This document shows, piece after piece, positions 3,001-49,948 of a DNA stretch of 64,000 bases; within the stretch, counting starts at the first letter, position 1; every line of letters starts with the position of its first letter. This DNA is from a virus. The stretch is taken from positions 17,523-81,522 of IMG/VR virus record IMGVR_UViG_3300048839_001082; one strand, given 5' to 3'. The position numbers were made by a program, and so were the translations under genes. A model generated the notes under the pieces. That model was not told the origin of the DNA, made no database searches, and saw only the letters and a list, made by a program, of their open reading frames with translations.

Positions 3001-5140
3001 GGATGCGCTATTAGAAAGGTATAAGAAGACTTCTCCTATTTTATTTGATGAAGTGGAAGCTTGGCGAATAGGTGATTTGATATCTCCTTTAAAATTGAAT
3101 ACAAAACCTTTCGAAAGAGCAGCTTTAGGGACATATTCAAATCCCGGACTTACTCAAACATTTGTTAGAATGCAATATGCGGATGAATTGAAATCATTAT
3201 CTTTTAAAGAAACTCCGACACATTCTGCGTTGGTATTAAAAGAAGCGACAGCAGCATTATCAAACCCCCTGGATGTAGACGCTTATCTTGCTAGAGTGAA
3301 TGCTTTTCCAGACTTTGCAACGCTTAAAGAGAATACGCCAGATGCGCTTCAAAAAGATCTTTTAATTTATAAAAGAATGTTTGATGAAAAGGCTAGCCAA
3401 ACATTAATGGGAAAAGCTACGCTTCCCCAGAAAGCTAAAGCTTTTGCAGAACTTTCCAAGAGTGTTCTAAAGAATGCTGCAAAGAATAGTATTGCTCTCA
3501 TAAAGAATCCTAATTTTGTTCCCAGTTTGATCGGTGGTGTTGCCGTTGAAGAACTATTAAGGAGAACGCTACCTATTGAAGACCATTTCATAGGTCTTGC
3601 AGACCAAATGGAAGGAACCTTACCGATAGAAATGAGAGGTGTGATAGCAGCATACGGCGCATTTGCGCAATCGTTGTTAGGACTCGTGGTAGGAAACTTA
3701 GTCGGTGATAAAATTTTTGGTGCTAAGAGACTCTTTAAAGTGTTTTCCAAAAATACATTTGCGAATGGAGGCTCAGTAAAAGGCCCCGGTGGCCCTGTTG
3801 AAGACAAAATTCCTGCATTTCTCTCCAATGGTGAATTTGTCGTAAACGCGGCCAGTACAAAGAAGCACAGAGCTCTTCTGGAACGTATCAATTCAGCTAA
3901 AGGTTACAAGCTCGGCGGTCCTGTCGGTGACAATCAAGATGTGATTGAACGCGCCCTTAGAGGGATTCAATATGGACAAATTGACGCTCTTCAAGGTGTC
4001 AGAAAGTTGAGAGCGCAAGCTTCTATACTCGATATCAATTTGAATCCATTGCAATTTGAAGTGCTCGATCAAAAGAAACGTGAAGAATTTAGAAGTCTTT
4101 TAGAAAATGCTTTCCGAGCAAGAATCGAAGCTTTAGATGCAAAGACTCCTGAACTTGCGGCTGCCGCTCACAGAGCTTTAACGAATGTCGATGAATTCAT
4201 GGATAAATACATGACACGATTCGCTGATCCTGCAAAAGAAGCTGGAGCTAATTTTGCCAGAGATTCAGAAGAAAACTTCCAATCGGGCTTAGCTGATTTA
4301 CTCAAGGGGAATACCGCAGAAGGTAAGTCAATTGGTAAGACATTTGCTGATAATTTTCTTGATCAATTCACGAATAGCGTTATAAATACATTCGCTAAGG
4401 GAATTACTGATCAACTTTTTGGAAAAGATTCGCCTATAACAGAAGTGTTAAAAGAAGCGGGAACAGGCATTTTTGGTGTGTTGAAAAAGAGTTTTTTCAA
4501 GAATAAAGAAGAAATTCCAACCGGTGCGCCTTTGACCGCGACATCCGGTACACTTTCGCCATTGATAGCCTCTGAAGGTAGTCCTTTATTGTCTGAAACG
4601 ATTAATCCTTTTGAAAGCTTAGAATCGTTAACGGAAGACTTCAAAGTCTGGTTTGATGGTTTCGATGCGACATTAACGGATGGTCTAAAAAGTATCGAAT
4701 CTATTGATCTGAGTACGCCACTGGCAGGATTGGGCAAGTTATTATCAGACAACCTAGATGAAGCTATCAATATGTTCATAAAGTTTACTGGTGGTTTTGC
4801 TTCCGGTGGTTTTGTCAGTGGACCGGGCACGAGTACTTCTGATTCTATTCCCGCAATGTTATCTGCGGGTGAATTTGTTGTAAATGCAGCATCTGTCAAA
4901 AAATTCGGCCCATTACTTGAATCTATTAATTCAGGACGTCCTCGTAATTTTTCTGGAGGCGGTCTTGTGGCACCTTCGCCATTAGCTGAAAGACCTGTTT
5001 CAGTCGGTGGGCAGCAAATCATAAACCTTAATATAACTGGTGATATTAGCCGACAAACAAGAAGTGAGATTTACGCAATGATCCCACAAATAGCCGGCGG
5101 AGTTAATTTACACAACAGAGAGAAAGGTTTAAAGGTATAA
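2..5140 (+). CDS. Tail tape measure protein, 5'-partial
   Basis: Frame is open from position 2. Long helical protein just upstream of the tail genes, with three copies of the TMP C-terminal motif FAxGGxVxGPG...DxIPAxLSxGEFVVNA (starting 2231, 3758, 4796). Confidence 0.85.
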   Translation, partial: RYNPNFRFRTDAATKELLDLAKNAEDSVVFTNEAIETALGEARIKLERIDALVREQETTMFGSYKPLEMTGRQGEYNQTLLNGFNSARDEALQRVREKLAFDREEKAIRKFNKQLNEVETVAKNILKLEFDVEDIFAFDQHSFNNMVRITTEVDALGKALIKTSDIASRNAIILKIKEQRDQFVYEQSEARLAEPVYNQSRLPEFMSEAGMQMSPEFANSLSDFNAGIIAKIATDLSNKIKKSKLKVPGSPEYTVLAEEIRADQDANARFIADLAKSNQETFFYVKDLAGKYEVDFPGLMKKYGLSGAKTLLSKLADKEQARSDAIAKGDIGILPGIDNDIARFKETLAEIPLDVQTMLSTIGNVGVSIDINDLFNAPELLATLTEVANRLREIDKDFKFKGPTLTSEGLDSILIRQQAQQRAAFASSLKTIDNTPQKLGTLLSNYGADTSKDISALTESTRNYIVELERVKTTIEFLRKSRQSPADTEALFQMDTLFNRLTESFKNRLKKVGEVFGEVNSTLNLELTESQFFGFSKAARKTLSDYANYFARGIEAIRDSFDGKDMFGTSAEDFYKKYKAVLKKLEFIKVVETSLESISDVVTDGLGAQFSKLSSAMGDLQIDKSSFATLPSELRESSTKSALAVNALSGLNDLSGLSEEQRALINTLSPDGSNAESILNQIVEELRRSNLTELDPQIAEFLKSQSEFPRSQLDATNNLSSAIWTLKDTIDALILKFPMAVPKFASGGSIKGPGSGISDSIPAWLSNGEFVVNAKQTKKHRGLVEAINKDRLPRFADGGYFGNPLHMIDSLDDTINVDELLKVYPKFQDILNLKENTSAELVKRFGNNLDLNNLNPKAFLEFRKISDSYAESLANLLNLDLNLTDDLDVFRFEPDLKLGSEQVRKSFINLPELGAKYADFPNKTAAEAIRYHEFGHAIAFKSRNLPIDLGPDVDPGLTAAMFRRVKVPITESGNLVLKDFLGTPLSSISMEDAIKQFNLPDALLERYKKTSPILFDEVEAWRIGDLISPLKLNTKPFERAALGTYSNPGLTQTFVRMQYADELKSLSFKETPTHSALVLKEATAALSNPLDVDAYLARVNAFPDFATLKENTPDALQKDLLIYKRMFDEKASQTLMGKATLPQKAKAFAELSKSVLKNAAKNSIALIKNPNFVPSLIGGVAVEELLRRTLPIEDHFIGLADQMEGTLPIEMRGVIAAYGAFAQSLLGLVVGNLVGDKIFGAKRLFKVFSKNTFANGGSVKGPGGPVEDKIPAFLSNGEFVVNAASTKKHRALLERINSAKGYKLGGPVGDNQDVIERALRGIQYGQIDALQGVRKLRAQASILDINLNPLQFEVLDQKKREEFRSLLENAFRARIEALDAKTPELAAAAHRALTNVDEFMDKYMTRFADPAKEAGANFARDSEENFQSGLADLLKGNTAEGKSIGKTFADNFLDQFTNSVINTFAKGITDQLFGKDSPITEVLKEAGTGIFGVLKKSFFKNKEEIPTGAPLTATSGTLSPLIASEGSPLLSETINPFESLESLTEDFKVWFDGFDATLTDGLKSIESIDLSTPLAGLGKLLSDNLDEAINMFIKFTGGFASGGFVSGPGTSTSDSIPAMLSAGEFVVNAASVKKFGPLLESINSGRPRNFSGGGLVAPSPLAERPVSVGGQQIINLNITGDISRQTRSEIYAMIPQIAGGVNLHNREKGLKV

Positions 5141-19051: not shown

Positions 19052-19285
19052 ATGGATTCAAGAGAGACTGCCCATTTTGTGGAAGGTGCGATGATGGAGT
19101 ACTATCGTCGCAACGAATGGAATCCTGAAGACTATACTCGGTATACTCAGGAAACGATCAATAAGGTCTGGAGGTATCTGACTCAACCGAGTCAAACCAT
19201 TGATGCGTCTTACACGGATATTCAAGCGCACATCGCGCTCGAAGCAGGTAAGATTCATTTTCCGCAAAGTCTCAAGCGCCGCTAG
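19052..19285 (+). CDS. Hypothetical protein
   Basis: RBS AAGGAG; the stop codon lies inside the tRNA-Arg 5' end. Confidence 0.6.
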   Translation: MDSRETAHFVEGAMMEYYRRNEWNPEDYTRYTQETINKVWRYLTQPSQTIDASYTDIQAHIALEAGKIHFPQSLKRR

Positions 19286-19351
19286 CTCAGGGGATAGAGC
19301 AACGGCCTTCTAAGCCGTAGGCCGCTGGTTCGAATCCAGCGCGGTGCGCCA
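19276..19351 (+). tRNA. tRNA-Arg(TCT)
   Basis: Cloverleaf GCGCCGC/GCGGTGC, anticodon loop CT-TCT-AA, TTCGAAT T-loop, encoded CCA. Confidence 0.93.
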
Positions 19352-19353
19352 GT

Positions 19354-19445
19354 TAACGAACGATGAGATGACGGGTTAGCGCCGTCATTGGTCAGAAGAC
19401 TCCTTTCTCCGTAAACGCTGCTTCATGCGAGCTCATCGTTCGTTA
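19354..19445 (+). ncRNA. Structured RNA directly 3' of tRNA-Arg
   Basis: Perfect 14-bp closing stem, inner 7-bp hairpin, possible loop pseudoknot. Confidence 0.55.
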
Positions 19446-19666
19446 TTCTAACTGTCCTGCTCGGATACGTCCCTGAGAGTATTGGACGAAAGGCATTAAA
19501 AGCAGCTGAGACTTGGTTGCAACTCATGAGGCAGCTGTGCTATAAGTCGATCGAAATCTGGGAAGAGCCGGGATGTCTGTGTCCCGTAGTAAGAAAACAG
19601 AATAGGTTGAGACTGTACTGCCGAACCAGTACGCCGGAAGGACAGTAACCGGCATCCTACAATTGC

Positions 19667-19987
19667 ATGGAGAATGATGTGACAGATTTCAGTAAACCTT
19701 TTGTTGTAAATTCGAATCCGTTCGGCTCTTTCGGAAGGGACTTTGAGAAGCTCGTTCCGAGACTCGAAGACATTCCTGAAGATTTCGATAATAAGCGTAA
19801 GTGGGAGGAGTGGCAGTCTGAATGGTTTTTCTCAGGTCTGACACCGACTCCGACACCTCGCCCTGGAATTGATGTCGATTTGGCATTGCGACATCTCGCC
19901 GCAATTCAGCGTTCGTGGGAACCAAAGCACGAGCACAAGCAGATCTACGTAGCCTATCTTGCCAGTCTCTGGTTTGAACATCCTTGA
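19667..19987 (+). CDS. Phage hypothetical protein
   Basis: Well-formed ORF with SWEPKHEHK..VAYL motif. Confidence 0.65.
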   Translation: MENDVTDFSKPFVVNSNPFGSFGRDFEKLVPRLEDIPEDFDNKRKWEEWQSEWFFSGLTPTPTPRPGIDVDLALRHLAAIQRSWEPKHEHKQIYVAYLASLWFEHP

Positions 19988-20334
19988 AAGGAATTATTAT
20001 GATGAACACTGAAATGTTGGCCGCTTTTGAATCCGCCAAAAATGAAATTCAGAGAATTCTGGAAGACTGTGAAAAGACGAGAGGTAAGAAATTCCGGGTG
20101 TATGTCGAACTGATGCAAACGCTGACACTGCTCTTTCAGTCCGGTGGAGTTGGGACCGGAATTCTCACCGCAAAAACGGCTGAAGTTTGCGGAGCAATCA
20201 GCGTGGAACTCGGCCTCAGTGATGCGGACAGCCGAGAAGCATTGAATATCGTGAGATCTCTCGAAAAGATCGGCAAAGAATTGGGAGATAAATTGTCACT
20301 TGCCCGAGCGGACGGTGTGTCCAATTTGAACTAA
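19984..20334 (+). CDS. Hypothetical protein
   Basis: Coupled ORF; the start is probably an ATG slightly downstream. Confidence 0.6.
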   Translation: MKGIIMMNTEMLAAFESAKNEIQRILEDCEKTRGKKFRVYVELMQTLTLLFQSGGVGTGILTAKTAEVCGAISVELGLSDADSREALNIVRSLEKIGKELGDKLSLARADGVSNLN

Positions 20335-20345
20335 AGAAGGCAATC

Positions 20346-20459
20346 ATGAACAAACAAAAAGGTTTCACGATTTTTGAGTTGATCGCAGCACTCGCCACTG
20401 TGGGTATTTTCAGTGTTGTAGCTTACGTGTTATTTCATTTCATCAGCAAGTTCTGGTGA
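20346..20459 (+). CDS. 37-aa type IV prepilin-like peptide
   Basis: MNKQKG|FTIFE followed by a hydrophobic helix (class III signal, G-F-x-x-x-E); RBS AAGG. Too short for the ORF track. Confidence 0.7.
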   Translation: MNKQKGFTIFELIAALATVGIFSVVAYVLFHFISKFW

Positions 20460-20464
20460 TTCGA

Positions 20465-20541
20465 GGGCCGTTAGCTCAGTCGGTAAGAGCAGCGGACTCA
20501 TAATCCGTTGGTCGTTGGTTCAAGTCCAACACGGCCTACCA
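20465..20541 (+). tRNA. tRNA with CAT anticodon, probably tRNA-Ile2 (lysidine type)
   Basis: Cloverleaf with CT-CAT-AA loop and CCA; body resembles ileX-type rather than initiator tRNA. Confidence 0.85.
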
Positions 20542-22072: not shown

Positions 22073-23639
22073 TTGAAATCGAGAGTAGTGGCTTCATTGA
22101 CTCGGAGAATTACCACTGAAGCTGTTCTGCAAGCTCAGTTACGATTCTTAAAAGAGCATGATGTGAACTCTTATGTAAATACTGTAATTTCTACATTATA
22201 CTTGTACACAAGACCTAAAAAGGGTTACGAAACAACTTCTGTTTACATGGCTGAATTGATTTCTGCCTTGGGTCATGGTGTGCGAACAAAACTTAAGCTC
22301 AAAAGAGACTCCAATGCCGCTGCTAAACTAGGTGCATTTTTATTATATACATTCGAAGAACTTGGTTATATAAAAGTGATATTGGGTGTGGGAACGAGAC
22401 ACGCCACTTATATCGTGACTGTAACCAATGACAATGCAATAGTATCGATGTGGAGTGCGATGGAAGCTTCTCATATTGAGAAATTACCGTCCGGAACTCC
22501 ATATGCTCCTTGGACCAGCACAAAACATAATGCTGGAATTCGAATGGTGAAGACTAATGATAAAGGAGTACTTGATAAAATCGCTCCTGAAACTCATCCA
22601 ATTTTATTCAATGTACTTAACAAAGCTCAAGCCGTCGGTTGGAGAATTCATAAAGAGATTTACGACCTTCATGCATGGGCGCTAAGGAATAAAACGGATG
22701 CATTTGCCGATATTTGGGAACAACAAAATCCCGAAGCGAAGGCTACGAAAATAAGAGAAGTTAAAGCCATCGGCGAAATGGCAAAGAAGTTTCTTAACAG
22801 TCCAATATATCATCTCTATTATTATGATTTTCGTGGTAGGAAATACACGAATACAGCTTATTTACATGAACAGGGTAATGATCTGGCCAGAGCTTTACTC
22901 CAAAGAATTGACGAGAAGAAAATAGGCAGAGCAGGTTATTGGTGGATGCTGGTATCAATTGCGTCAAATTGGGGTGGTGATTCTGGCAGACTTGATGGAC
23001 TAAAAACTGATAAGATTCCCCTTCAAGAACGTTATTTATGGGCGTTAGATAATGAAGATATTTTATTGGCATATGCTGAAAAGCCTAAGGTACATCAAGG
23101 TTGGATGAAGGCTGACAAACCTTGGCAGTTTCTCGCAGGATGCATTGAGCTAAAAAGACTCAGAGAATGGCAGTATCAATACGGCAGTGTTAAAAACCCA
23201 TTTGAAGATTATAATTATGAATCTCACATGGAAGCCTACATTGATGGTAGCAATAATGGTTCTCAACATCTGGCTGCTTTGACGCTGGATGAAGTCACGG
23301 CGCCTCACGTAAATTTGGTTCCGTTAGAACTTCCAGGAGATCTCTATTCTTATGTGGCCGGACATGTATGGGACCATCTGCATGAGCTCTTGAAAGATTA
23401 TCCAGAAGAAGAACGTGAAGACTGTGAAATCTTTATCGATAACTTGATAGAATTGAAGAAGAAGATAACTGCGGCCGAGCCTAAAAGCGATGTGAGAAGA
23501 GAATTAATAGCTTCGATTCAAACTTTTAAAGAGGCTAATCAATATATTCTAGATAAATCTGCCGCGGTGTATTGGTACAGGATCGAAGATAATAAGCACA
23601 AAAGAAAGATCGTGAAGAGAAACGCGATGACAATTCCGT
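22073..23639 (+). CDS. T7-like single-subunit RNA polymerase, exon 1
   Basis: DFRGRKY, DKPWQFLA, motif A YIDGSNNGSQHL, and the start of motif B RKIVKRNAMTIP. Confidence 0.92.
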
Positions 23640-24149
23640 TGTAAAGGCGGAAGTAAAAGAGGGTGAATTCAGTGGACATCCATTCGCTGTGGACAATACT
23701 GAGCCGAGCCGTTTAAACGGAAGGTGCAACGACTATCATGTAGGGCAGAAGTCTGCTCGAAGCCCCCTCCACTCCTTGAGTGATGATATAGTCTGGTCTG
23801 CATAGTAATATGCAGCTGTATTAAGCAATTGGTATGAATATGAATTGGAACGAAATCTTTATCTACAACGCAGATGGCAGTTTAACGAGGCGTTATTCAA
23901 ATAATCAGCATAATACTGTTGGCTGGATAAATAGTTCAGGTTACAGAGGTGTTGTTAGAACTAAAAATAATAAATTTCAAGCACGTTTAACGCTAGAAGG
24001 TAAAAAGCTTTACTTAGGCTTGTTCGATACGCCCAAGGAAGCTTTTGATTGTGTTGAAACTACACGTAAAGAGTTGTACGGCGAATTTGCAACTCTTAGA
24101 TAAATTGCTTAATACGGGTGAAGATTAACGAACTTCATTGAACACAACG
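23640..24149 (+). mobile_element. Group I intron (510 nt) in the RNA polymerase gene
   Basis: P1 UUCCGU/GCGGAA with U.G at the splice site; core elements aattcagtgg, aatactgagc, caacgacta, gatatagtc; terminal G at 24149. Splicing restores T|AT (Tyr) and the reading frame. Confidence 0.92.
23834..24103 (+). CDS. Intron-encoded degenerate HNH-AP2 endonuclease (AP2 domain only)
   Basis: SGYRGV..KFQARL...KKLYLGLFDTPKEA...LYGEFA is AP2-like; no HR/DH/N HNH core; enclosed by a 15-bp stem (23816-23830/24103-24117). Confidence 0.7.
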   Translation: MNMNWNEIFIYNADGSLTRRYSNNQHNTVGWINSSGYRGVVRTKNNKFQARLTLEGKKLYLGLFDTPKEAFDCVETTRKELYGEFATLR

Positions 24150-24829
24150 ATGGTGGAACAAGTTATGGAATGGGGCAGCAGATAATTGATGATTCTAGAA
24201 AACACGGTATTGACCAGTTACTCTATTTAGAACATAAATGGGGTGCCTTCTTGGGTAGAGCCGTCTTTAATGATTGTCGATTATCTTTAAAACGCCCTAT
24301 GAAGCTGTTATCAATTTTTGAAGAAGCCGGAAAGAAAGCCGAGAAACAAGGTAGATTTCTGTCTTGGACAGTGCCTATAACAAATTTCCCAGTAGTTCAA
24401 CACTACACAGAAGGTGTGGTGAAGAAGGTCTGGTGTCAATATGGTCCTCCTAGGGGTCCTCGACTCAGTACAAATTACTTCGAAAACACTTACCAAATTT
24501 CTATTTCTTTCATCGAAGAACGTGTGCCTTCCCGAAATAAACAATCTCAAGGTGCGAGTCCCAATGCCATTCATAGCTTAGATGCAGCTCATTTGGCGTT
24601 GACCGTTGAAAGATGTGATTTCCCAGTAACTACCATTCATGATAGTTTCGGGTGTTTATTAGCTGACATGCCTGTTTTGTTCAGGACGGTTAGAGAGACT
24701 TTTGTTGAACTTTATAATGCCAATCCGTTAGAGCATTTAATGAAAGACTTAGGCTGCAATATCAATGATGTGGATAGAGGTACGCTAGATATTTCACTAA
24801 TACTCGAATCTGAGTATGCATTTTCATAG
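24150..24829 (+). CDS. T7-like RNA polymerase, exon 2 (spliced product 748 aa)
   Basis: (Y)GGTSYGM, SPNAIHSLDAAHL, motif C TIHDSFG. Confidence 0.92.
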
Positions 24830-32978: not shown

Positions 32979-33195
32979 AATTTTAGCCGCATTGTCGGTG
33001 TTATCCGCATTTTCCGCATTGCTTTACGGTAGTTTCATTTTGATATCTAAGACGGTCCCTTTGGAAAGTGTTGATTATATCTTACTAGGGATTACATTTA
33101 TGATCGGAGGCAAGGTTTTTATCAGCTTCACTGAAACCTCCAAGGACAAATCCAGCGATGGGAACGATAGTAGCCAAGAACAGACCTTGCCTTGA
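32971..33195 (+). CDS. Small membrane protein
   Basis: Two hydrophobic segments. Confidence 0.5.
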   Translation: MSKILAALSVLSAFSALLYGSFILISKTVPLESVDYILLGITFMIGGKVFISFTETSKDKSSDGNDSSQEQTLP

Positions 33196-35794
33196 TAGTG
33201 CTTGTGGCTCTTCAGACGCGAGGCAAATATATGAAGATGGCACAAGCTTCTGTTTCTCTTGCATGAAGTTCTTTCCTAAAAATGCAGAAGATATCGTGCC
33301 AGATAAAGAAGAACATAACTATTTACCGAAAGTGGTAAGAACAGTGGAAGATATCGAAAAGAAGCTTAAAGAAATTTCCACCCTCCCAGTGAGAGGGTTT
33401 AAAGAGAGAAAAGTCTCAAAAGAAGTTTGTGAATTCTTCGATGTTAAGGTTTCTTATAATGCAGATAGTGGTGAAATCGCTGCTCACTATTATCCTTATG
33501 AAAATGGAAAAGCCTATAAAGTCCGAGAGCTTCCTAAACAATTCAAATGGATTTCGAAATCAGAAGATCTCTTTGGTAAAGACAAATTCAGCAGTGGCGG
33601 AAAGCGAATTTTCATTGTAGAAGGTGAAGTTGATACGTTGAGTGTTGCACAGACCCTTCACGACAAGTATGGAAAAATTTATCCTGTTGTGGGTCTCTCA
33701 TCAGCCACGATCGCTGGAAAGACACTTTTAAAAAATCGAGAGTGGTTACGAAGCTTTAAAGAAATTATTCTGTGTCTCGATAATGATGATGCTGGCAAGG
33801 TGGCCACAGAAACAGCCATCAAGATACTAGGTATTGATAAAATTAAAGTTGTCAAACTGGCCGGAAAAGATCCTAATGAAGTATATTTAAAGCAAGGCTC
33901 TTCTGTCTTAATGCAGAATCTATTTGATGCTGCTCCATATATTCCTTCCGGTATCATTACCAAAGAAGCACTATGGGAAGCACTGGTTAACTATAACAAT
34001 ACACCTTCGATTCCATATCCTGCTTGTGTGCATCGTTTAAATGAAAAAGTCAAAGGGATGCGTAAAGGGGAAATTACTCTCTTTGTGTCTGGCACTTCCT
34101 GCGGCAAGAGCACATTGTTGCGAGAAATCATGCTCAGTAATCAAGAATTGACCACAAGTAAAATTGGTGTTGTCAGTCTTGAGGAATCTCCCGCGGAAAC
34201 TGCGCGTAAGTTGTCGGGAATGAAAATTAATAAAAATCCTGCTAAAGAGGAGATACCACTTGAAGAGCTCAAAGTCGGTTTTGACGCTGTGTTCGGAGAT
34301 GATCGCTACATTGTATTGGACCATCAAGGATCACTTAAAGACGAAACGATTTTGGACAAGCTTGAGTATATGGCTCTTAGTGGTTGTGAGTATATATTTA
34401 TTGATCATATCACGATTTTAGTATCTGAAGGTGCCGGTGAATTGACGGGCAATGAAGCCGTTGATAAGATCATGAACGATCTATTAAGATTCGTTAAAAG
34501 ACATAATGTCTGGATTGGGTTAGTTTCACATCTTCGAAAAACCACGAACACAGGTAAGTCATTCGAAGAAGGCAGAATGCCCAATCTAGATGATATCAAG
34601 GGATGTTTAGCATACAATACTGAAGTGTTGCTCTCAAATGGTCATTCTACTGCAGTTCAAAATATTAAGATTGGAGATTGTTTGATAGGGGATAATGGGA
34701 TACGTCGTGTGCTCTCATTAAGGAGGGGTGAGCAACAGATGTATAAGGTTACCACTAAGACCACGAATGACAGTTTTATATGTAATGAAGATCATGTTTT
34801 AACAGTATCTCATAATGATATTTTATTAGACATCTCAATCAAAGATTTTCTTAAAAAGAGTAGCAGTTTTCAGGAAAGATGTAAACAGCATTACTCAAAG
34901 GGATATGAATTGCCTGAAAAAACTTTATTGATCCCACCATATGCTCTTGGTGCTTGGTTAGGAGATGGTTCTAAATCGGCATTTAGAATAATGGATGCTA
35001 GCGAACTCGGCATCGCTGAGAGAGTTGCAAGGGAACTTAATGCGGAATTGAAACAACCCTCAAATAAAAGAAGAGAGTATTTCAACTTTGATACAGGTGT
35101 TCAGGGCGACATGCTCACGCGATTGAAAGAATTAGATCTCCTTTGTAACAAACATATTCCTGAAGAGTATATATTTAACACAAAAGAAAACAGACTTCTT
35201 TTGTTAGCAGGTTTAATTGATACTGATGGAACATACAGCTATAAAGATAATGCTTACTATTTTTACCAAAAAGATGAAGTATTGGCAGAGAATGTAAAAA
35301 AGATAGCAAGATCATTGGGTTTCTATAGCAATGTTAGATCACAAATCATCAATGGTAAATATTCGTCCAATGGTAGTTTAATTTTTGTAGTGACAATTTC
35401 TGGTGATATTGAACAAATTCCTGCTCAGAAAAATATTAAATTAACTCTTAATGAAAGACACACAGATCCATTAAAACGTGGCATTATTATAGAAAAATTA
35501 GGTATTCAACCTTATTACGGATTTACATTAGATGGAAATGGCAGATTTCTATTAGGAAATCATACAATCACTCACAATTCAGGCTCAATCAAGCAAATAT
35601 CATTCGACATTGTTGCTTTCGCGCGTAACCTTCAAGAGCCAGATCCAATCAAATGTAATACCATCTCCATGTCAGTATTGAAATGTCGTTTCTCAGGATT
35701 GACTGGAGAAATTGGCGGTTCTTATTATGACTATGATACCGGTAGGTTCAGACCGGAAGAGGAAATTCCACAAGAAGATTTCACTTCGTTATGA
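33158..35794 (+). CDS. Primase-helicase (T7 gp4-like) containing an intein
   Basis: N-terminal Cys zinc finger, TOPRIM VEGEVD and LDNDDAG, Walker A SGTSCGKST, FIDHI, VSHLRK, DDIKG|intein|SGSIKQ. Confidence 0.93.
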   Translation: MGTIVAKNRPCLDSACGSSDARQIYEDGTSFCFSCMKFFPKNAEDIVPDKEEHNYLPKVVRTVEDIEKKLKEISTLPVRGFKERKVSKEVCEFFDVKVSYNADSGEIAAHYYPYENGKAYKVRELPKQFKWISKSEDLFGKDKFSSGGKRIFIVEGEVDTLSVAQTLHDKYGKIYPVVGLSSATIAGKTLLKNREWLRSFKEIILCLDNDDAGKVATETAIKILGIDKIKVVKLAGKDPNEVYLKQGSSVLMQNLFDAAPYIPSGIITKEALWEALVNYNNTPSIPYPACVHRLNEKVKGMRKGEITLFVSGTSCGKSTLLREIMLSNQELTTSKIGVVSLEESPAETARKLSGMKINKNPAKEEIPLEELKVGFDAVFGDDRYIVLDHQGSLKDETILDKLEYMALSGCEYIFIDHITILVSEGAGELTGNEAVDKIMNDLLRFVKRHNVWIGLVSHLRKTTNTGKSFEEGRMPNLDDIKGCLAYNTEVLLSNGHSTAVQNIKIGDCLIGDNGIRRVLSLRRGEQQMYKVTTKTTNDSFICNEDHVLTVSHNDILLDISIKDFLKKSSSFQERCKQHYSKGYELPEKTLLIPPYALGAWLGDGSKSAFRIMDASELGIAERVARELNAELKQPSNKRREYFNFDTGVQGDMLTRLKELDLLCNKHIPEEYIFNTKENRLLLLAGLIDTDGTYSYKDNAYYFYQKDEVLAENVKKIARSLGFYSNVRSQIINGKYSSNGSLIFVVTISGDIEQIPAQKNIKLTLNERHTDPLKRGIIIEKLGIQPYYGFTLDGNGRFLLGNHTITHNSGSIKQISFDIVAFARNLQEPDPIKCNTISMSVLKCRFSGLTGEIGGSYYDYDTGRFRPEEEIPQEDFTSL
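34604..35578 (+). mobile_element. Intein (325 aa) with LAGLIDADG endonuclease
   Basis: Starts CLAYNTEV, ends ITHN followed by Ser; LGAWLGDGS and LAGLIDTDG motifs. Confidence 0.93.
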
Positions 35795-36820
35795 AAGGTA
35801 TAATGAGCAGTATTCAAACACCTTGGAGCTCAGTCGGCTACCTAACTTATAAAAGAACGTATGCCAGAGAAATCACTCCAGGGGTTACCGAAGAATTTCC
35901 ACAAACAATTGAACGTGTTTTAGATGCTTGTCAAACTCAGTTGCATTGTGGATTTATCGGGGAAGAGTTAGATCGTCTTAGAGAATACTTTCTTAAGCTT
36001 AAAGCGTCAGTTGCTGGAAGATTTCTTTGGCAATTGGGCACTCAGACCGTAGATCGTTTTGGTCTTGCCAGTCTTCAAAATTGTGCATTTACTGTTGTAG
36101 ATAGTCCGGTAAGACCTTTCTGTTGGGCTATGGATATGTTGGCATTAGGCTCTGGAGTAGGCTACAATATCCAACATCGACATATAGATAAATTGCCCAC
36201 AGTTAAGGAGTGGTTTAGAGCACCTACCAGAATGGACAATGGTGGAGCTGACTTTATTATTCCAGATTCAAGAGAGGGATGGGTTAAATTTCTTGGCAAA
36301 ACACTCAAAGCTGCGTTCCTCAGCGAGACGCCGGAAAAGGGCACTTTCACATATTCAACACAAGTTATCCGAGGGAAGGGCTCGCCGATTAAAGGATTTG
36401 GCGGAGTTGCTTCAGGCCCCGAAGATCTCTGTTGGGGGATTGGAAAAATATCTGAAATATTATCGAAGCGTCACGGGAAGAAAATTAGGCCAATCGATGC
36501 ATTGGACATAATGAATATTATAGGTTATATTATTGTGGCCGGTAATGTTCGTCGAAGTGCTCAAATTGCCATCGGCGATCCTGATGACGTTGAATTCCTT
36601 TTGGCTAAGCGTTGGGATATGGGCAATATTCCTTCTTGGCGTGCCATGTCAAATAACAGTGTAGCTGTTGATGACATTGAAGACCTTCACGATTATTTCT
36701 GGGAAGGATATGAAGGCAAAGGGGAAGCATATGGTCTTATTAACTTAAGACTTGCTCGCAAAGTTGGACGTTTGGGTGAAACACAATATCCAGATCCCGG
36801 TGTTGAAGGAATGAATCCGT
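35791..36820 (+). CDS. nrdJ: Class II (B12-dependent, RTPR-type) ribonucleotide reductase, exon 1
   Basis: YKRTYAR, AGRFLW, LQNCAF, IPDSREGW, GNVRRSAQI, GMNP; start may be ATG 35803. Confidence 0.9.
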
Positions 36821-37636
36821 TAATCGCTAGCGGCATACATTAGAAATTCTGTATGAAAATTTATCTAAAAACGGTGGATCTCCCGATGGGACAATACCGT
36901 GCCAATCCGTTATGGAAGGTGTAACGACTATGAGTAAAGATCTGAACAAACGTTTGTATGCTTATGCGATGTTTGATGGCCACCTAATGTTTACTGGTAG
37001 TTCTTTAAACGCGTGTTTAGTAGTCAATATGCTTGAAAAACATAATGATTACATAGACAAAGTTATACAAACTCTGGAAGAACTTCCTGTAGGCTATAAA
37101 AGAAGTTTACCGGAAATTTATACAAAAGACGGTTATGAGCGACAGCAGCAAATAAGACTGCAATCACGCAACCATCCGATATTTACGAAAATTCACAGTA
37201 GAATATATATTGACAAGCAAAAGACAATAGATCCACATATGTTAACAATGATGGATGAAGAACTGTTGGCAATAGCCTTCATGGCTGATGGTAGCAGAGA
37301 TATAGATAAGCGCTGGGCAAACGCCAAGCCTTGTTATAGACTTCATTTTAACAATTTAACGTACGGTGATTTGATGTTGTTTAAGAAAAGCTTGAAAGAT
37401 GTATTCAATTTGGAAATAAATACTAGGAAAAAAGGATCTAGATACGATCTTGCAATTCCTACCTTTCATTCCGAATTTTTCGAAGAAATTGTCGGGCCTT
37501 TTATTCTTCCATCGTTTCAGTACAAACTTGGACGATGAACCCCCGAAAGGGGTGGTGATATAGTCTGTTCTATACGGTAACGTATAGAGATTGACAGAAA
37601 TGATCAATCAACGTTGTAAAACGTTTAACAACAAAG
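36821..37636 (+). mobile_element. Group I intron (816 nt) in nrdJ
   Basis: P1 CCGU/GCGG, core taacgacta and gatatagtc, P8 cccc-gaaa-gggg, terminal G at 37636. Splicing gives NP-T|GT(Cys)-AEQSL. Confidence 0.92.
36930..37538 (+). CDS. Intron-encoded two-motif LAGLIDADG homing endonuclease
   Basis: LYAYAMFDGH and LAIAFMADGS motifs; PSFQYKL ending. Confidence 0.8.
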   Translation: MSKDLNKRLYAYAMFDGHLMFTGSSLNACLVVNMLEKHNDYIDKVIQTLEELPVGYKRSLPEIYTKDGYERQQQIRLQSRNHPIFTKIHSRIYIDKQKTIDPHMLTMMDEELLAIAFMADGSRDIDKRWANAKPCYRLHFNNLTYGDLMLFKKSLKDVFNLEINTRKKGSRYDLAIPTFHSEFFEEIVGPFILPSFQYKLGR

Positions 37637-38520
37637 GTGCTGAGCAATCTTTGTACCCGTATGAGACTTGCTGTTTAGCGGAAGTATTCCTACCAAACGT
37701 CGACAGTAAAGAAGAATTCTTCGATATTCTTGAATTGCTTTATCGAATTAATAAACATAGCCTTTTGTTACCATCTCACCATCCTGAAACAGAAAAAGTT
37801 GTTCATCAAAACATGAGGATGGGTATTGGTTTGACTGGACTTCTTCAAGTCTCTGATGAAAAGAACGGATGGTTGAGTGAAGGTTATGAGTATCTCAGAG
37901 AATTTGATGTTGCATATTCTGAAGAAAATGATATTCCCATTTCTATTAAACTAACAACGGTCAAGCCAAGTGGAACTTTATCACTACTTCCAGGTGTTAC
38001 TCCAGGGATTCACCCTGGTTATGCTCAGTATATGTTTCGTAGGATTCGTATCGGCGCTAGCAATCCGCTCGTGGAAACTTGCAGGAGTCATGGTTATCCT
38101 GTGGAGTATGTTCGTAATTTTGACGGAACTGAAGACTACAATACAGTGGTTGTGACATTTCCTTTCAGTTATCCTAAAGGGACAATTCTCGCGTCAGACA
38201 TGACCGCCATTGATCAACTAAAGGAGATACAAAGGTTACAAAATGACTGGTCGGATAACTCTGTATCGTGTACTATCTACTATCGCAAAGAAGAGTTACC
38301 GAGCATTCGAGATTTTCTTAAGAAGCACTACAGAAACGGATTCAAGAGTCTCTCCTTCCTTCTCCACAAAGACCATGGATTCGATCAAGCTCCCTATGAA
38401 GAAATTACAGAGACCGAATTCAGACTACTCTCCAACCGAACTACAATTATTGGAAACCTTGAAAATGCCGAATTCGAATCAAGCGACGAATGTGCCACTG
38501 GAGCCTGCCCCATTAAATAA
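37637..38520 (+). CDS. nrdJ: Class II ribonucleotide reductase, exon 2
   Basis: ETCCLAE, TTVKPSGTLS, WSDNSVSCT, C-terminal CATGACPIK. Confidence 0.9.
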
Positions 38521-46203: not shown

Positions 46204-46293
46204 GGACAGTTGGCTGAGAGGCTTAAAGCGCCGGTCTTGAAAACCGGAGTTGGCGAAAGTCGACCGTGAGTTCGAATCTCACACTGTCCGCCA
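46204..46293 (+). tRNA. tRNA-Ser(TGA)
   Basis: GGACAGT/ACTGTCC acceptor, CT-TGA-AA loop, long variable arm, G73 and CCA. Confidence 0.93.
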
Positions 46294-46319
46294 TTTAAAA
46301 TATAAGAGGATTAAATAGA

Positions 46320-46661
46320 ATGATTACAGAATCAAGACCAATTAGCGTACTCCGACGTGTTTTAATATGGGGAGGTGTTACAATTTTATCTAAACATGTA
46401 CGACAGTTTCCTGTTATTGAAATGCTCAATGCTGATGACATTGGGATTGGTTGGGTCATGACAAACACAGAATGGATGTTATTTGAACGTGATGATGCTT
46501 TAGTAAAGATCAAACGTAAATTGACAGTTGAGAGAATAGATTACGACGCATACACAAATAAGCAATTTAAAGAAAAGTATGGCTTTTATAAAGAGGCGCA
46601 TTTTGATCATTATCATAAATTTCATAAGGCATTGAAGACATTGCAACAATATTATGTTTAA
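46320..46661 (+). CDS. Hypothetical protein
   Basis: GAGGA RBS. Confidence 0.55.
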   Translation: MITESRPISVLRRVLIWGGVTILSKHVRQFPVIEMLNADDIGIGWVMTNTEWMLFERDDALVKIKRKLTVERIDYDAYTNKQFKEKYGFYKEAHFDHYHKFHKALKTLQQYYV

Positions 46662-46845
46662 GAACTAAAATGACACTCCCATTTCCCAGAGACATTGACC
46701 TCAAAACTATCATTTCAGACCTTAAAATCTCTCAGAGAGGACTTGAATTGCTGATAAATCGAACACCGACGAGCGAGTCTCGCAATGATTTGACGGAAGC
46801 AAATATCCATCTCATGGAAGCAATTGACGTTTTAAAGAAACAACT

Positions 46846-47055
46846 ATGAGCACTGTTAGTAAAAAAATCGCTGATGAAGTGATCGCTCAGAACGGTCGCT
46901 ATGAAGGAGATCCCCAAGTTTATTCTATTTGGAAATACACATCTAAGTGGAATACGGAGGGTTACAAGTTGTTTTATAAGCCGAATATGTATCTATCTGA
47001 TTCGAAATTTACGATCGATCCAAGGATTTATTGGAGTTATGATGAGCAATTCTAA
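46846..47055 (+). CDS. Hypothetical protein
   Basis: Coupled ORF. Confidence 0.55.
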   Translation: MSTVSKKIADEVIAQNGRYEGDPQVYSIWKYTSKWNTEGYKLFYKPNMYLSDSKFTIDPRIYWSYDEQF

Positions 47056-47296
47056 ATCAGGCACTGTGGTATTTGATGATCTTTGTATCAGTTACTTTTC
47101 TGATAAGGCTGGTCAAATCAATTACAAGATCACACGATTTGATCATTGCATAGCTCAGGATTTCACGGTTGATGATCAAAGCTTTTTTAGAGCATTGTCA
47201 ATTGCATTGCATCCCACTAACTTTCCGGATTACGACCGTGACTTTATGTGGGCAGAAGCAATTATGCCGAAAGGAGAGTTTAGATGGATTCCATGA
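47042..47296 (+). CDS. Hypothetical protein
   Basis: GGAG RBS before ATG 47042. Confidence 0.5.
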   Translation: MSNSKSGTVVFDDLCISYFSDKAGQINYKITRFDHCIAQDFTVDDQSFFRALSIALHPTNFPDYDRDFMWAEAIMPKGEFRWIP

Positions 47297-47315
47297 GTAT
47301 CGATGTTTCTCTTTT

Positions 47316-47501
47316 ATGCGCAAAGATGTCAAAAAGGCTTTAGAGCCTTATCTTGAAAAAGGATGGGAGATCTCTAAAAGTTCTAAACATTATCAAATGA
47401 AACATCGAGAGTACGGGACTGTTGTGATGTCTTCAACAGCTTCCTGCCCCTTCTCAATCAAACACATTCTCGGTGATCTTAAAAGAGCTGAAAAGAAATA
47501 A
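47316..47501 (+). CDS. HicA-like small RNase/toxin
   Basis: 61 aa; KGWEI..SSKHYQMKH...TVVMS...IKHILGDLKR pattern; start uncertain. Confidence 0.5.
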   Translation: MRKDVKKALEPYLEKGWEISKSSKHYQMKHREYGTVVMSSTASCPFSIKHILGDLKRAEKK

Positions 47502-47507
47502 TCGTTT

Positions 47508-47581
47508 GCCCTCATAGTTAAATGGTATAACAGGTCACTTGTAATGATCAATTCACTGTTCGATTCAGTGTGAGGGCACCA
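47508..47581 (+). tRNA. tRNA-Thr(TGT)
   Basis: GCCCTCA/TGAGGGC acceptor, CT-TGT-AA loop, TTCGATT, CCA. Confidence 0.9.
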
Positions 47582-47585
47582 TTAA

Positions 47586-47617
47586 GGTCGTCGGTTCGAT
47601 TCCGACTGGCGGCACCA
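47586..47617 (+). pseudogene. Isolated tRNA 3' half (Thr-like)
   Basis: ggtc-GTCGG-TTCGATT-CCGAC-TGGCGGC-A-CCA: intact T arm, acceptor 3' strand and CCA. Confidence 0.8.
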
Positions 47618-47633
47618 TTTTAAGGAAATCACA

Positions 47634-48026
47634 ATGAAGACTATTGGTATTGTTCTTTTGTCAGTGGTTTTGGCGTCGTGTGGTGGAGGCGGAGATGACT
47701 CGCCTTACGTCTCTAAATATGCTCGTTACAACGGGAGCTATACATGCAAAGTCGAAATGACGACACCCATGTATTTTCAGGTTAAAGGCGAATTTGAGGA
47801 TACACGGGCCACGCTCACGATGGGAGGCGCTAAGTACGTGTATGACGATGTATTCGCCGAAGTACGCGGTGGACATCCTCGTTACTCTGAAAAGTTCGGT
47901 GACTATGACAAGTATGAGACCGTGACATTTGGATATAAAGATGAAATGGTCATTTATCGAGGACCCTCCAGTAATTTGGATTATTATTACACGGATGAAT
48001 TCTTTCTTTGCACTAAGGATCGTTAA
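47634..48026 (+). CDS. Lipoprotein
   Basis: Signal peptide with lipobox LAS-C followed by a GGGG linker. Confidence 0.75.
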   Translation: MKTIGIVLLSVVLASCGGGGDDSPYVSKYARYNGSYTCKVEMTTPMYFQVKGEFEDTRATLTMGGAKYVYDDVFAEVRGGHPRYSEKFGDYDKYETVTFGYKDEMVIYRGPSSNLDYYYTDEFFLCTKDR

Positions 48027-49296
48027 TGGTGATCACTAAATTGAATACTTTGCCTGAAGAAGGTAAGGAAGACATGTTGGAAATTCTCGAATTGATGAAG
48101 AAATCAGTAACAGAGGGTGAGATCATTTCCTTCATCTCCGTTGGGATTGCACCCAATGATGAAACACTTATATGGATAGGTTCTCAAAAAAGAGTCACCA
48201 GGCTGCGCATGATGGGTGCGATCGCTAATCTTCAACATCATTTTAATTCAGAACAAGTATGATTACAGATGCCGATCGTTTAGACTTCTTAGATACTCTG
48301 ATCAATCGCACAGAGTTTCAAAACACTAGACGTCCCAAAGAATATGTCGCGTCAGATATGCATTTAGGGCAAGGTTGGTGTTCACTATATGTCAGAAACT
48401 TATTTGGAAACATCGTGAAATCTTCCAGTCAAAGTTCAGTTAGAGAAACAATTGATGCTGTCATGAATGGCGCAAAGGAATAAATATGGAACGCGTCACG
48501 TTGCACGGAGAAACATTTTTCGTGGTTCATCCGGTCGATCGACTAATGTCAAGTCATATGGTTCGTGAAGTGGTCGAATCTGGCGCTCGATTCGTGGTCA
48601 ATGCTAGAACAAGTGAATTGACCATTGACCGATCGGCCGTGAAGCAAAATGCTTCAATTTCTGTCACTGAAGATATTTATAAACGACTTGAGGTACTCAC
48701 GAAACAATTTCAATCAGCACTCAATGAATTAGCCGAGATTCGCAAAGAAATTTCCCTTCTTAAGAGGTGATTATGAAACGAGCTGATGTAATTGAAAATC
48801 TTTTGTTGAGTCGGAAAGCCGCACTTCATTTGTTCTATATTACTCAACAGTTCGGCATTCAGATCACCACCGATAATTTTGATATTGTGACAGTAGTTGA
48901 AGATGAGCCAGAAGTTCTTCGAGAAATTGAATTGTGGGCTGATGATGTAGGTTTGCTATCAAGAAAGCATCCTGAAGAAGCCAAGTTACTTTTCTTAGAA
49001 GTGCCTAAGAAATGACTAAAACAAGAGTAATTAATCAATGGATGGACAGAGACCCTAATTGGGTCTTTGTTCCCGTTGAACACGGTAAATATATGAGAGT
49101 CGAAGTGGCGGTGGTCAGAGCACCATGCATCGCTTGCGGAGCGCAATTGGGAGTACCTTGTAAACGTCTTAAAACAAATGGGATGGATTATAGCTCTTTC
49201 GTGCATGATGTAAGAAAGACACACGCGAAAGCAGGGCATCTTCATGATATTTATCATGATGTAATTTCAGAGGAAGTCGAATCACCACTTAAATAA
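48026..49296 (+). other. Run of five small coupled hypothetical genes (48026-48262, 48259-48483, 48486-48770, 48767-49015, 49012-49296)
   Basis: Overlapping start/stop codons; the last has a CxxC...C...H zinc-binding pattern. Confidence 0.55.
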
Positions 49297-49300
49297 CAAT

Positions 49301-49332
49301 GCGGGGTTGGTGGAATTGGTAGACGTAAGGGG
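49301..49332 (+). pseudogene. 5' fragment of a broken tRNA-Leu
   Basis: GCGGGGT-TG-GTGGAATTGGTAGAC...AAGGG; its acceptor strand is exactly complementary to ACCCCGC at 49982-49988. Confidence 0.8.
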
Positions 49333-49336
49333 GCAT

Positions 49337-49858
49337 ATGTTACCTTCGATAGAAAATGATAAATTTTTTCTAGAATTAATTGAAAAAGAAGAGCTATTTG
49401 TATCAAATTTAGGCGATGTCTTAGACCTAAATACTGGTAAACAAATAGGGTTTATCACAGGCGGTTATAAGAGAATTAATATGTACGGCAAGACGATGGC
49501 AGTGCATCGTTTAGTTTATTTAGTACATATTTCTGAAAACATACCTGAATTTCTAGCAATTGATCATTTAGATGGGAATAAGCTCAATAACAAGGTTGAA
49601 AATTTAGAAGCGGTCTCATATTCTGAAAATAATAAAAGAGCTGTTTCAAAAGGTCTGCACAAAATCGATATAGCGCGTTTAAAAGAAATTTCAAAAGGGT
49701 CTAAAAATGGAATGGCTAAATTGAATTGTGAAGAAGTAAAAGAAATACGCGCATTACGTGAAAAAGGATTTAAGGTAAAAGATATTGCAGAATTGTATCA
49801 TGTGTTGCCAAAAGCAATTTCACAATTGCTCAATGGCGTGACATATAAAGACTGTTAA
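49337..49858 (+). CDS. Free-standing HNH homing endonuclease with C-terminal HTH
   Basis: VSNLG, VHRLV, IDHLDGNKLNN...NLE....EN, then KNGMAKL...IAELY HTH. Confidence 0.88.
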   Translation: MLPSIENDKFFLELIEKEELFVSNLGDVLDLNTGKQIGFITGGYKRINMYGKTMAVHRLVYLVHISENIPEFLAIDHLDGNKLNNKVENLEAVSYSENNKRAVSKGLHKIDIARLKEISKGSKNGMAKLNCEEVKEIRALREKGFKVKDIAELYHVLPKAISQLLNGVTYKDC

Positions 49859-49863
49859 ATTCA

Positions 49864-49948
49864 GGCCGTGTGGCGAAATTGCTAAACGCAGTAGATTTAA
49901 AATCTACCACCGAAAGGTTTACGGGTTGGAGTCCCGTCACGGCCACCA
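49864..49948 (+). tRNA. tRNA-Leu(TAA) with reversed C19:G56 elbow pair
   Basis: GGCCGTG/CACGGCC acceptor, TT-TAA-AA loop, variable arm, A73 and CCA; D-loop has GC and T-loop TTGGAGT. Confidence 0.88.

Follow-up and report, generated by a model that had tools for sequence, protein, structure and literature searches.

The introns of the T4 genes td, nrdB and nrdD (sunY) belong to subgroup IA2 of the group I introns, and the open reading frame (ORF) of the sunY intron is located in a 3' peripheral loop. Podophage DNA polymerase genes that contain group I introns with HNH endonucleases have been described in Pf-WMP3 (PMC3428280) and LUZ24 (PMC10914365), and phiL7 is a further case; a group I intron with an HNH nuclease is described in an RNA polymerase (RNAP) gene of the jumbo phage PhiPA3 (PMC11878797). 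In the T7 family of RNAPs, g16, the gene of the RNAPII large subunit in the G7C-like (N4-like) coliphages N4G2 and Sz33, carries an insertion of ~800 bp with a homing-nuclease ORF; it is reported to be spliced in infected cells, according to reverse transcription PCR and a sequenced junction (junction peptide QAVMTAFYGSEAK), and the authors' own Rfam search on the insertion gave no match (10.1101/542787). Pseudomonas phage ZC08 has an HNH element inside its RNAP2 gene, for which no intron or splicing is proposed, and homing-endonuclease insertions are discussed there as an origin of split RNAPs (PMC5418858). Here we describe an insertion in the RNAP gene of an uncultured wastewater phage. The DNA analysed, hereafter the window, is a stretch of 64,000 nucleotides (nt) covering bases 17523–81522 of the 81,522-bp IMG/VR record IMGVR_UViG_3300048839_001082; the phage genome has direct terminal repeats and the record is rated complete. 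We consider it about 90% probable that the insertion is a 510-nt group I intron restoring a Tyr codon of the RNAP by guanosine-initiated self-splicing, and it is best explained as an ordinary selfish element, mobile-type and subgroup-IA-like, in the single RNAP gene of the phage.

The ORF list shows three ORFs on the + strand at the RNAP locus, of 523 (22073–23644), 89 (23834–24103) and 219 amino acids (aa; 24170–24829), in line with the expectation of an earlier note on this DNA, made without database searches, that ORF callers would report the polymerase in two pieces. Both exons match Pfam RNA_pol (PF00940; E = 6.9e-31 for exon 1 and 8.6e-24 for exon 2), and on the PHROG 414 RNA polymerase profile exon 1 covers positions 130–591 and exon 2, read from 24152, positions 593–816, so that the two matches abut and only the position of the split codon is missing. 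Joining the exons by script produces an open frame of 748 aa (...KRNAMTIPYGGTSYGMGQQ...) that is colinear from residue 1 to 748 with the uninterrupted genes of four relatives (loci L002, L004, L005 and L006; 52–64% identity, tblastn); relatives encode the RNAP as one protein of 748–750 aa. The nearest phages by protein are DSS3_VP1/PM1 (31%). The motif-B Tyr of the clade (MTLPYGG) aligns with Tyr639 of T7 RNAP, as had been proposed (chain 1aro_P, T7 residues 626–883, E = 3.9e-15, with the L002 protein standing in for that of the window), and the motif-A segment YIDGSNNGSQH aligns with HQDGTCNGLQH of mitochondrial RNAP. Only after splicing do the motif-B Tyr and the motif-A Asp stand in one RNA_pol polypeptide.

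The insertion sits within the motif-B Tyr codon, split T/AT. Exon 1 ends with ...ATT CCG T at 23639, the intron opens with TGTAAAGGCGGAAG at 23640 and closes with ...CACAACG, its terminal G being 24149, and exon 2 begins with AT GGT GGA at 24150. A splice-site scan took every combination of an exon 1 ending in U with an intron ending in G, over about -60/+40 nt round each of the two boundaries; alignment to an intronless homologue was best for 23639/24150 (score 252; runner-up 242). A search with group I covariance models, which the note had suggested, gave a match to Rfam RF00028 (Intron_gpI) at 23619–23815 with 63.6 bits, against a gathering score of 50 bits (E = 8.5e-14 over the whole 64-kb window, 1.1e-15 locally). 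This match is far beyond chance, and it is the sole RF00028 match over the cut-off in the whole genome. The intron limits given in the note, together with a U.G pair in P1, a P3/P7/P8 core and a terminal G, are thus borne out by the sequence, the Rfam match and the splice-site scan; the U.G pair is the wobble U23639.G23647 at the 5' splice site.

The individual helices are listed in Table 1. The RF00028 match ends at P9 (23815), and 334 nt of intron remain downstream, with a hairpin-plus-tail arrangement of the P9.2 type that is also present in six other introns inspected. The 5' parts of 12 introns of the clade were aligned by MAFFT, and 44 pairs in P1, P3, P4, P5, P6, the P7 pseudoknot, P7.2 and P9 were assessed. 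Standard pairs fill 95.6% of the 528 cells, versus 32.6–41.5% when the 3' partners are slid by 1–3 columns, a contrast that is favoured by the structure having been drawn from the same 12 sequences. Changes on both sides were found in 28 of the 44 pairs. None of 500 shuffles matched the observed pairing, both-side changes or covariation score; for the number of further pair types, 18 of 500 did. All 12 introns have the splice-site U.G pair; the remaining P1 pairs follow the insertion site (AU, UA or GC at one position, GC or CG at another), and the guide sequence pairs with its own exon, covarying at each of four insertion sites. These both-side changes and site-specific guides are stronger evidence than the contrast with slid controls. 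P7 is the usual guanosine-binding helix of group I introns; here it shows one compensatory A-U to G-C change in 2 of the 12 introns, its remaining pairs being invariant. Each intron forms 38–44 of the 44 pairs, and that of the window 43.

Taken together, the ribozyme fold, the boundaries, the colinear exons and the homologous introns argue for splicing. The guide GCGGAA would pair with the exon end UUCCGU to form P1 in the pre-mRNA, and an external guanosine at P7 would attack after U23639. The terminal G24149 would then replace this guanosine, and the freed 3'-OH of exon 1 would attack after G24149. Ligation would join T to AT and restore the Tyr codon that is the counterpart of T7 Tyr639, and an RNAP with an intact motif B would be encoded by the spliced mRNA only. 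The claims of the note that a group I intron splits the motif-B Tyr codon of a T7-like RNAP, and that the active enzyme requires splicing, find support at the level of sequence in the RF00028 score, the exon colinearity, the match between P1 and guide and the covariation in 12 introns. The intron would have arrived by endonuclease-driven homing into a highly conserved target, and its endonuclease gene has since lost the nuclease core through an in-frame 201-nt deletion, leaving a copy that is probably no longer mobile on its own; the intron may have persisted because precise splicing renders it harmless.

Table 1. Exons, intron, predicted helices and intron ORF of the window, and the insertion sites of the introns in the RNAP genes of the clade
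Feature	Position in window	Strand	Description	Basis
RNAP exon 1	22073..23639	+	522 codons and first base (T) of Tyr codon; TTG start	start as called by the ORF list
Group I intron	23640..24149	+	510 nt	RF00028 match, splice-site scan, 43/44 family pairs
P1	23634..23652	+	exon UUCCGU (23634–23639) with guide GCGGAA (23647–23652)	sequence and minimum free energy (MFE) fold
P3	23659..23769	+	23659–23663 and 23665 with 23763 and 23765–23769	covariation table, Rfam alignment
P4	23669–74/23697–702	+	inside P3	covariation table, Rfam alignment
P5	23679–83/23689–93	+	inside P3	covariation table, Rfam alignment
P6	23703–04/23724–25	+	inside P3	covariation table, Rfam alignment
P7 pseudoknot helix	23729..23794	+	23729 and 23731–35 with 23789–94	covariation table and MFE fold
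P7.2-like hairpin	23743–48/23753–58	+	inside P3	covariation table, Rfam alignment
P8	23770–74/23778–82	+	inside P7	
P9 hairpin	23798..23815	+	CUGCAUA GUAA UAUGCAG	Rfam alignment, covariation, MFE fold
P9.1	23816..24117	+	15-bp stem 23816–23830/24103–24117 round the intron ORF	MFE folds of 23796–24149 and 23630–24160
Intron ORF	23834..24103	+	89 aa; HNH-AP2 homing-endonuclease remnant (by sequence); start 3 nt past P9.1 stem	
P9.2 hairpin and 3' tail	24118..24149	+	6 bp (24118–23/24133–38); 11-nt tail to terminal G	MFE fold
RNAP exon 2	24150..24829	+	AT of Tyr codon, then GGTSYGMGQQ... to stop	
Site A			motif A, IDG/SNNGSQH; introns L069, L076a	
Site B1			KR/N, between T7 Arg632 and Ser633; introns L003, L023, L028, L055, L044a, L076b	
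Site B2			Tyr639-equivalent codon, T/AT; introns of the window and L043	
Site B3			GLG/QQ, between T7 Arg647 and Gln648; introns L064, L044b	

A profile of the four intronless proteins named above retrieved 69 IMG/VR loci, 60 of which contain one uninterrupted RNAP match by local tblastn (three of them are shortened by contig ends, two of these stopping before motif B). The other nine are interrupted (L023, L028, L030, which is on the same contig as L003, L043, L044, L055, L064, L069 and L076). The survey of RNAP genes for this insertion site that the note had called for thus gave, with the window included, 10 interrupted genes among 70 in the clade, and one other locus, L043, sharing the Tyr codon. 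A separate metagenome scan returned five loci, mostly contigs already among the IMG/VR matches, and neither of the fragments L009 and L011 has an interruption. The five closest IMG/VR relatives are 47–61% identical to exon 1 in their best-matching segment; four are uninterrupted, and the fifth, L003, has a 707-nt group I intron (78.2 bits) 19 nt upstream, at KR/NVMT. In all, 11 homologous introns and that of the window occupy four sites in motifs A and B (Table 1; positions on T7 RNAP taken from the 1aro_P alignment). RF00028 scores over the cut-off were obtained for six introns in five of the eight loci searched (58–86 bits). The motif-A introns (L069, 4183–4891; L076, 992–1751) fold like the others, forming 41–42 of 44 pairs, though Rfam misses both. 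L044 has two motif-B introns (3589–3883 and 3929–4644), and the 45-nt exon between them (3884–3928) encodes NVMTLPYGGTAYGLG.

The L043 intron (714 nt) interrupts the same Tyr codon; its guide, GCGGAA, is identical, and it contains a full 152-aa HNH_3 ORF. Its 5' ribozyme core is 80.9% identical to that of the window, whereas the two RNAP genes are only 57.9% identical in DNA and 58.1% in protein. That the core is more similar than the exons is consistent with a single intron lineage having spread laterally among diverged phages, without proving it, as tighter constraint on the ribozyme may also play a part. Of the 60 intronless loci, 50 fit a simple motif pattern, and in these almost every first and second codon position of the target DNA is invariant (ATGACnnTnCCnTAtGGnGG); the other 10 were dropped, two as truncated and eight with variant residues.

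The intron ORF of the window matches PHROG 99 'HNH endonuclease' (E = 1.2e-17) over residues 22–87, covering only profile positions 199–265 of 383. Pfam HNH_3 gave no match in it, whereas the ORFs of L043, L003 and L064 do match (E = 1.7e-20 to 2.8e-17), and Pfam AP2 remains sub-threshold (15.3 bits; cut-off 33.3). Compared with the L043 ORF, it retains the N-terminal 35 residues and the AP2-like C-terminus, separated by a gap of 67 residues that includes the HNH core and lies between two -SGY/-TGY motifs. An 8,168-nt DNA contig from a wastewater run (X1) matches the window at 22073–23945 with 30 differences (~98% identity up to 23945) and resumes at 23937 after 192 unaligned letters, which places 201 extra nt exactly at the deletion point of the ORF. 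Since this near-identical phage keeps the longer ORF, the window copy is a recent in-frame 201-nt deletion, which, judged by sequence, removed the HNH core of an HNH-AP2 homing endonuclease. In the sister intron L044a just the last codons of the endonuclease ORF are left, and ORF loss is described as the usual decay phase of the homing cycle (PMC5418858). From 23937 to 24774 the X1 variant is only ~83% identical to the window (140 differences in 838 nt), and this step-up in divergence inside the intron ORF may mark a recombination junction.

Several observations weigh against a splicing-competent intron. The P10 pairing between exon 2 and the intron 5' end is weak, with no more than 3 bp (AUG with UGU, including two wobble pairs, assigned by hand), in contrast to the P10 of 5–7 bp drawn by hand for the site-B1 introns of L003, L028 and L055, and no convincing P10 was found in either of the Tyr-codon introns (the window and L043). 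Extra P7.1 and P7.2 hairpins between P7 and P3' are a trait of subgroup IA2; P7.1, present in most sister introns, is missing from those of the window and L043, which show a single hairpin in this interval (23743–23758 in the window) where most sister introns have two. Their Rfam scores (63.6 and 69.7 bits) are the second and third lowest of the seven clade RNAP introns reaching the cut-off (L044a, 58.1 bits; the rest, 75–86), and the introns of L023, L069 and L076 gave no RF00028 match even at E<=0.01; the latter are counted as group I because they can be aligned with the others and form 38–42 of the 44 pairs. The decayed endonuclease also shows relaxed selection on the element, so that some decay of the ribozyme is possible. 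Finally, no exon joint skipping the intron was found in the contigs of the runs examined (X1 and X3, DNA; X7 and X12, labelled RNA-Seq, the label being a guess), and no listed run is on record as RNA, so this absence says nothing either way about splicing; the X7 contig across the 5' splice site starts with adaptor-like letters and may be DNA. Exon 1, intron and exon 2 are all crossed by the X1 DNA contig, which comes from an independent wastewater run. DNA contigs with the intron-bearing allele come from at least two studies (X1 and X3), and a third study adds X7, from a library labelled RNA-Seq.

If the insertion did not splice, the RNAP might be made as two polypeptides, a gene in pieces like N4-type RNAPII or g39 of 10Gb, a DNA polymerase gene whose insertion is reported as unspliced, giving two proteins (10.1101/542787). 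Two-subunit T7-family RNAPs occur in N4-like phages (PMC5418858), exon 1 matches PHROG 2166 'N4-like RNA polymerase' (E = 4.8e-28), and spliced RNA is absent from the contigs examined. However, the unspliced exon-1 frame ends two codons into the intron (...TIPL and a stop), and translation downstream could first begin in frame at the ATG at 24170, which would leave the Tyr and the six motif-B residues that follow it (YGGTSYG) outside both pieces; the two ORFs together do not hold all catalytic motifs, unlike an N4-type pair of genes, and the insertion has a complete ribozyme whose guide is matched to the exact site. We therefore regard two polypeptides as very improbable. An N4-like phage was also considered and is not supported: the window has no ORF longer than 2303 aa and its two largest ORFs match tail or tape-measure PHROGs, a check that covered the 64-kb window, the first 17.5 kb of the genome being outside it. 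It is extremely improbable, in our view, that the ribozyme has decayed along with the endonuclease and that the RNAP is a pseudogene or a defective assembly variant in a phage relying on the host RNAP. The deleted HNH core, an Rfam score below those of most sister introns, the weak P10 and the missing P7.1 would all fit such decay, but the core retains 43 of its 44 pairs, each exon is a conserved open frame, the P7.1-less architecture is shared by L043 with its intact endonuclease gene, the genome is complete with terminal repeats, and the intron-bearing allele recurs in independent data sets.

A further proposal is compatible with a self-splicing intron and would add to it, namely that the intron or its AP2-only ORF has been co-opted, splicing gating the timing or level of the RNAP, or the protein binding the RNAP target site, for example against related endonucleases. 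The deletion of 201 nt preserves the frame, an 89-aa ORF with the N-terminal segment and an AP2-like domain remains intact, the ORF starts just 3 nt beyond the P9.1 stem, and every RNAP made must pass via splicing. On the other hand, a random deletion has a one-in-three chance of being in frame, almost all of the ORF is gone from L044a, as plain decay predicts, and 60 of 69 relatives have no intron, and we hold co-option to be unlikely. A more elaborate version appears decidedly unlikely: motifs A and B would serve as a landing strip for introns (four sites, up to two introns 45 nt apart), the AP2-only ORF would encode a DNA-binding protein that has been kept and that, when relatives with active HNH-AP2 endonucleases co-infect, sits on the RNAP target site or regulates the gene, and splicing would set the appearance of the RNAP. 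The suggestion in the note that splicing is a timing checkpoint for the phage RNAP is speculation.

Numerous unrelated wastewater and sludge contigs match the P7–P9 stretch of the intron alone (35–40 nt, window 23780–23819), with a summed depth in this bin of up to 722 in run X1 versus 16 for the phage's own contig, which shows that the intron core is widespread in those communities. Elsewhere in the window, a class II (B12-type) ribonucleotide reductase gene (35791–38520) is found in two ORFs, corresponding to positions 22–370 (35791–36843) and 386–697 (37591–38520) of PHROG 367. Between them lies a 208-aa LAGLIDADG_2 ORF (36912–37538; E = 3.8e-18) flanked by sub-threshold Rfam group I matches (20.4 and 30.8 bits), and the insert probably represents a further group I intron that carries a homing endonuclease within a loop. 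The 878-aa primase-helicase ORF (33158–35794) has an intein-like insert at residues ~483–750, after the DnaB_C domain, matching Hom_end_hint (E = 6.7e-17), LAGLIDADG_3 and Hom_end. Counting the RNAP intron, at least three selfish elements would thus reside in replication or transcription genes of this phage. Five tRNA genes (Arg-TCT, Met-CAT, Ser-TGA, Thr-TGT and Leu-TAA) lie at 19276–20541 and 46204–49948.

For annotation, split RNAP ORFs such as these (523 and 219 aa) are open to misreading as an N4-like two-subunit enzyme or a pseudogene, a problem common to 9 of the 69 relatives. The locus adds a one-piece T7-type RNAP to the phage genes colonised by group I introns. With its relatives it provides a compact natural series for the study of homing, site switching and decay of endonuclease genes, covering four sites in two catalytic motifs and including intact, truncated and nearly gone ORFs and a gene with a 45-nt mini-exon.

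The note had suspected that an intron in a single-subunit RNAP might be new. This holds only in part, given that splicing is known for an intron of the T7-family RNAPII gene g16, in its motif-B region (10.1101/542787); for a one-piece T7-type RNAP we found no description of a group I intron in the literature, supplements being outside the scope and cultured Autographiviridae not systematically surveyed. The RNAP intron is an ordinary selfish element in a host gene with few described cases, and reveals no new mechanism. The g16 intron resembles it as a nuclease-ORF insertion in a catalytic T7-family RNAP gene, with QAVMTAFYGSEAK in the same motif-B segment, and differs in its host gene, the large subunit of a two-subunit RNAPII rather than a one-piece 748-aa RNAP; the two were compared by description, at the level of the motif-B segment. 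ZC08 is similar in having an HNH homing-endonuclease element within a T7-family phage RNAP gene, and it is an N4-like phage.

The intron shares its type of ribozyme core with the T4 introns, and a megablast search against GenBank phages gave only matches of 36–49 nt in T4-like phages, in the P7–P9 stretch, at 90–97% identity. The T4 introns are likewise inserted in conserved catalytic motifs of essential nucleotide-metabolism genes, and the ORF of the window intron, like that of sunY, lies in a 3' peripheral loop. They differ in host gene, and the window intron has an HNH-AP2 remnant ORF and one hairpin between P7 and P3', with no P7.1. The core of the window intron is similar, too, to introns found in DNA polymerase genes of Xanthomonas phage CP1 and Aeromonas phages. 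The podophage introns, as described, are mobile group I introns in palm or fingers motifs of an enzyme with the T7-type polymerase fold, and are distinguished by their host gene, a DNA polymerase rather than an RNAP. The RNAP of PhiPA3 is multisubunit, with a fold unrelated to that of the T7 family. The intron described there is nevertheless comparable in combining a group I intron with an HNH nuclease in a phage RNAP gene, with a possible role in competition between related phages, and its nuclease is active, whereas the nuclease core has been deleted in the window.

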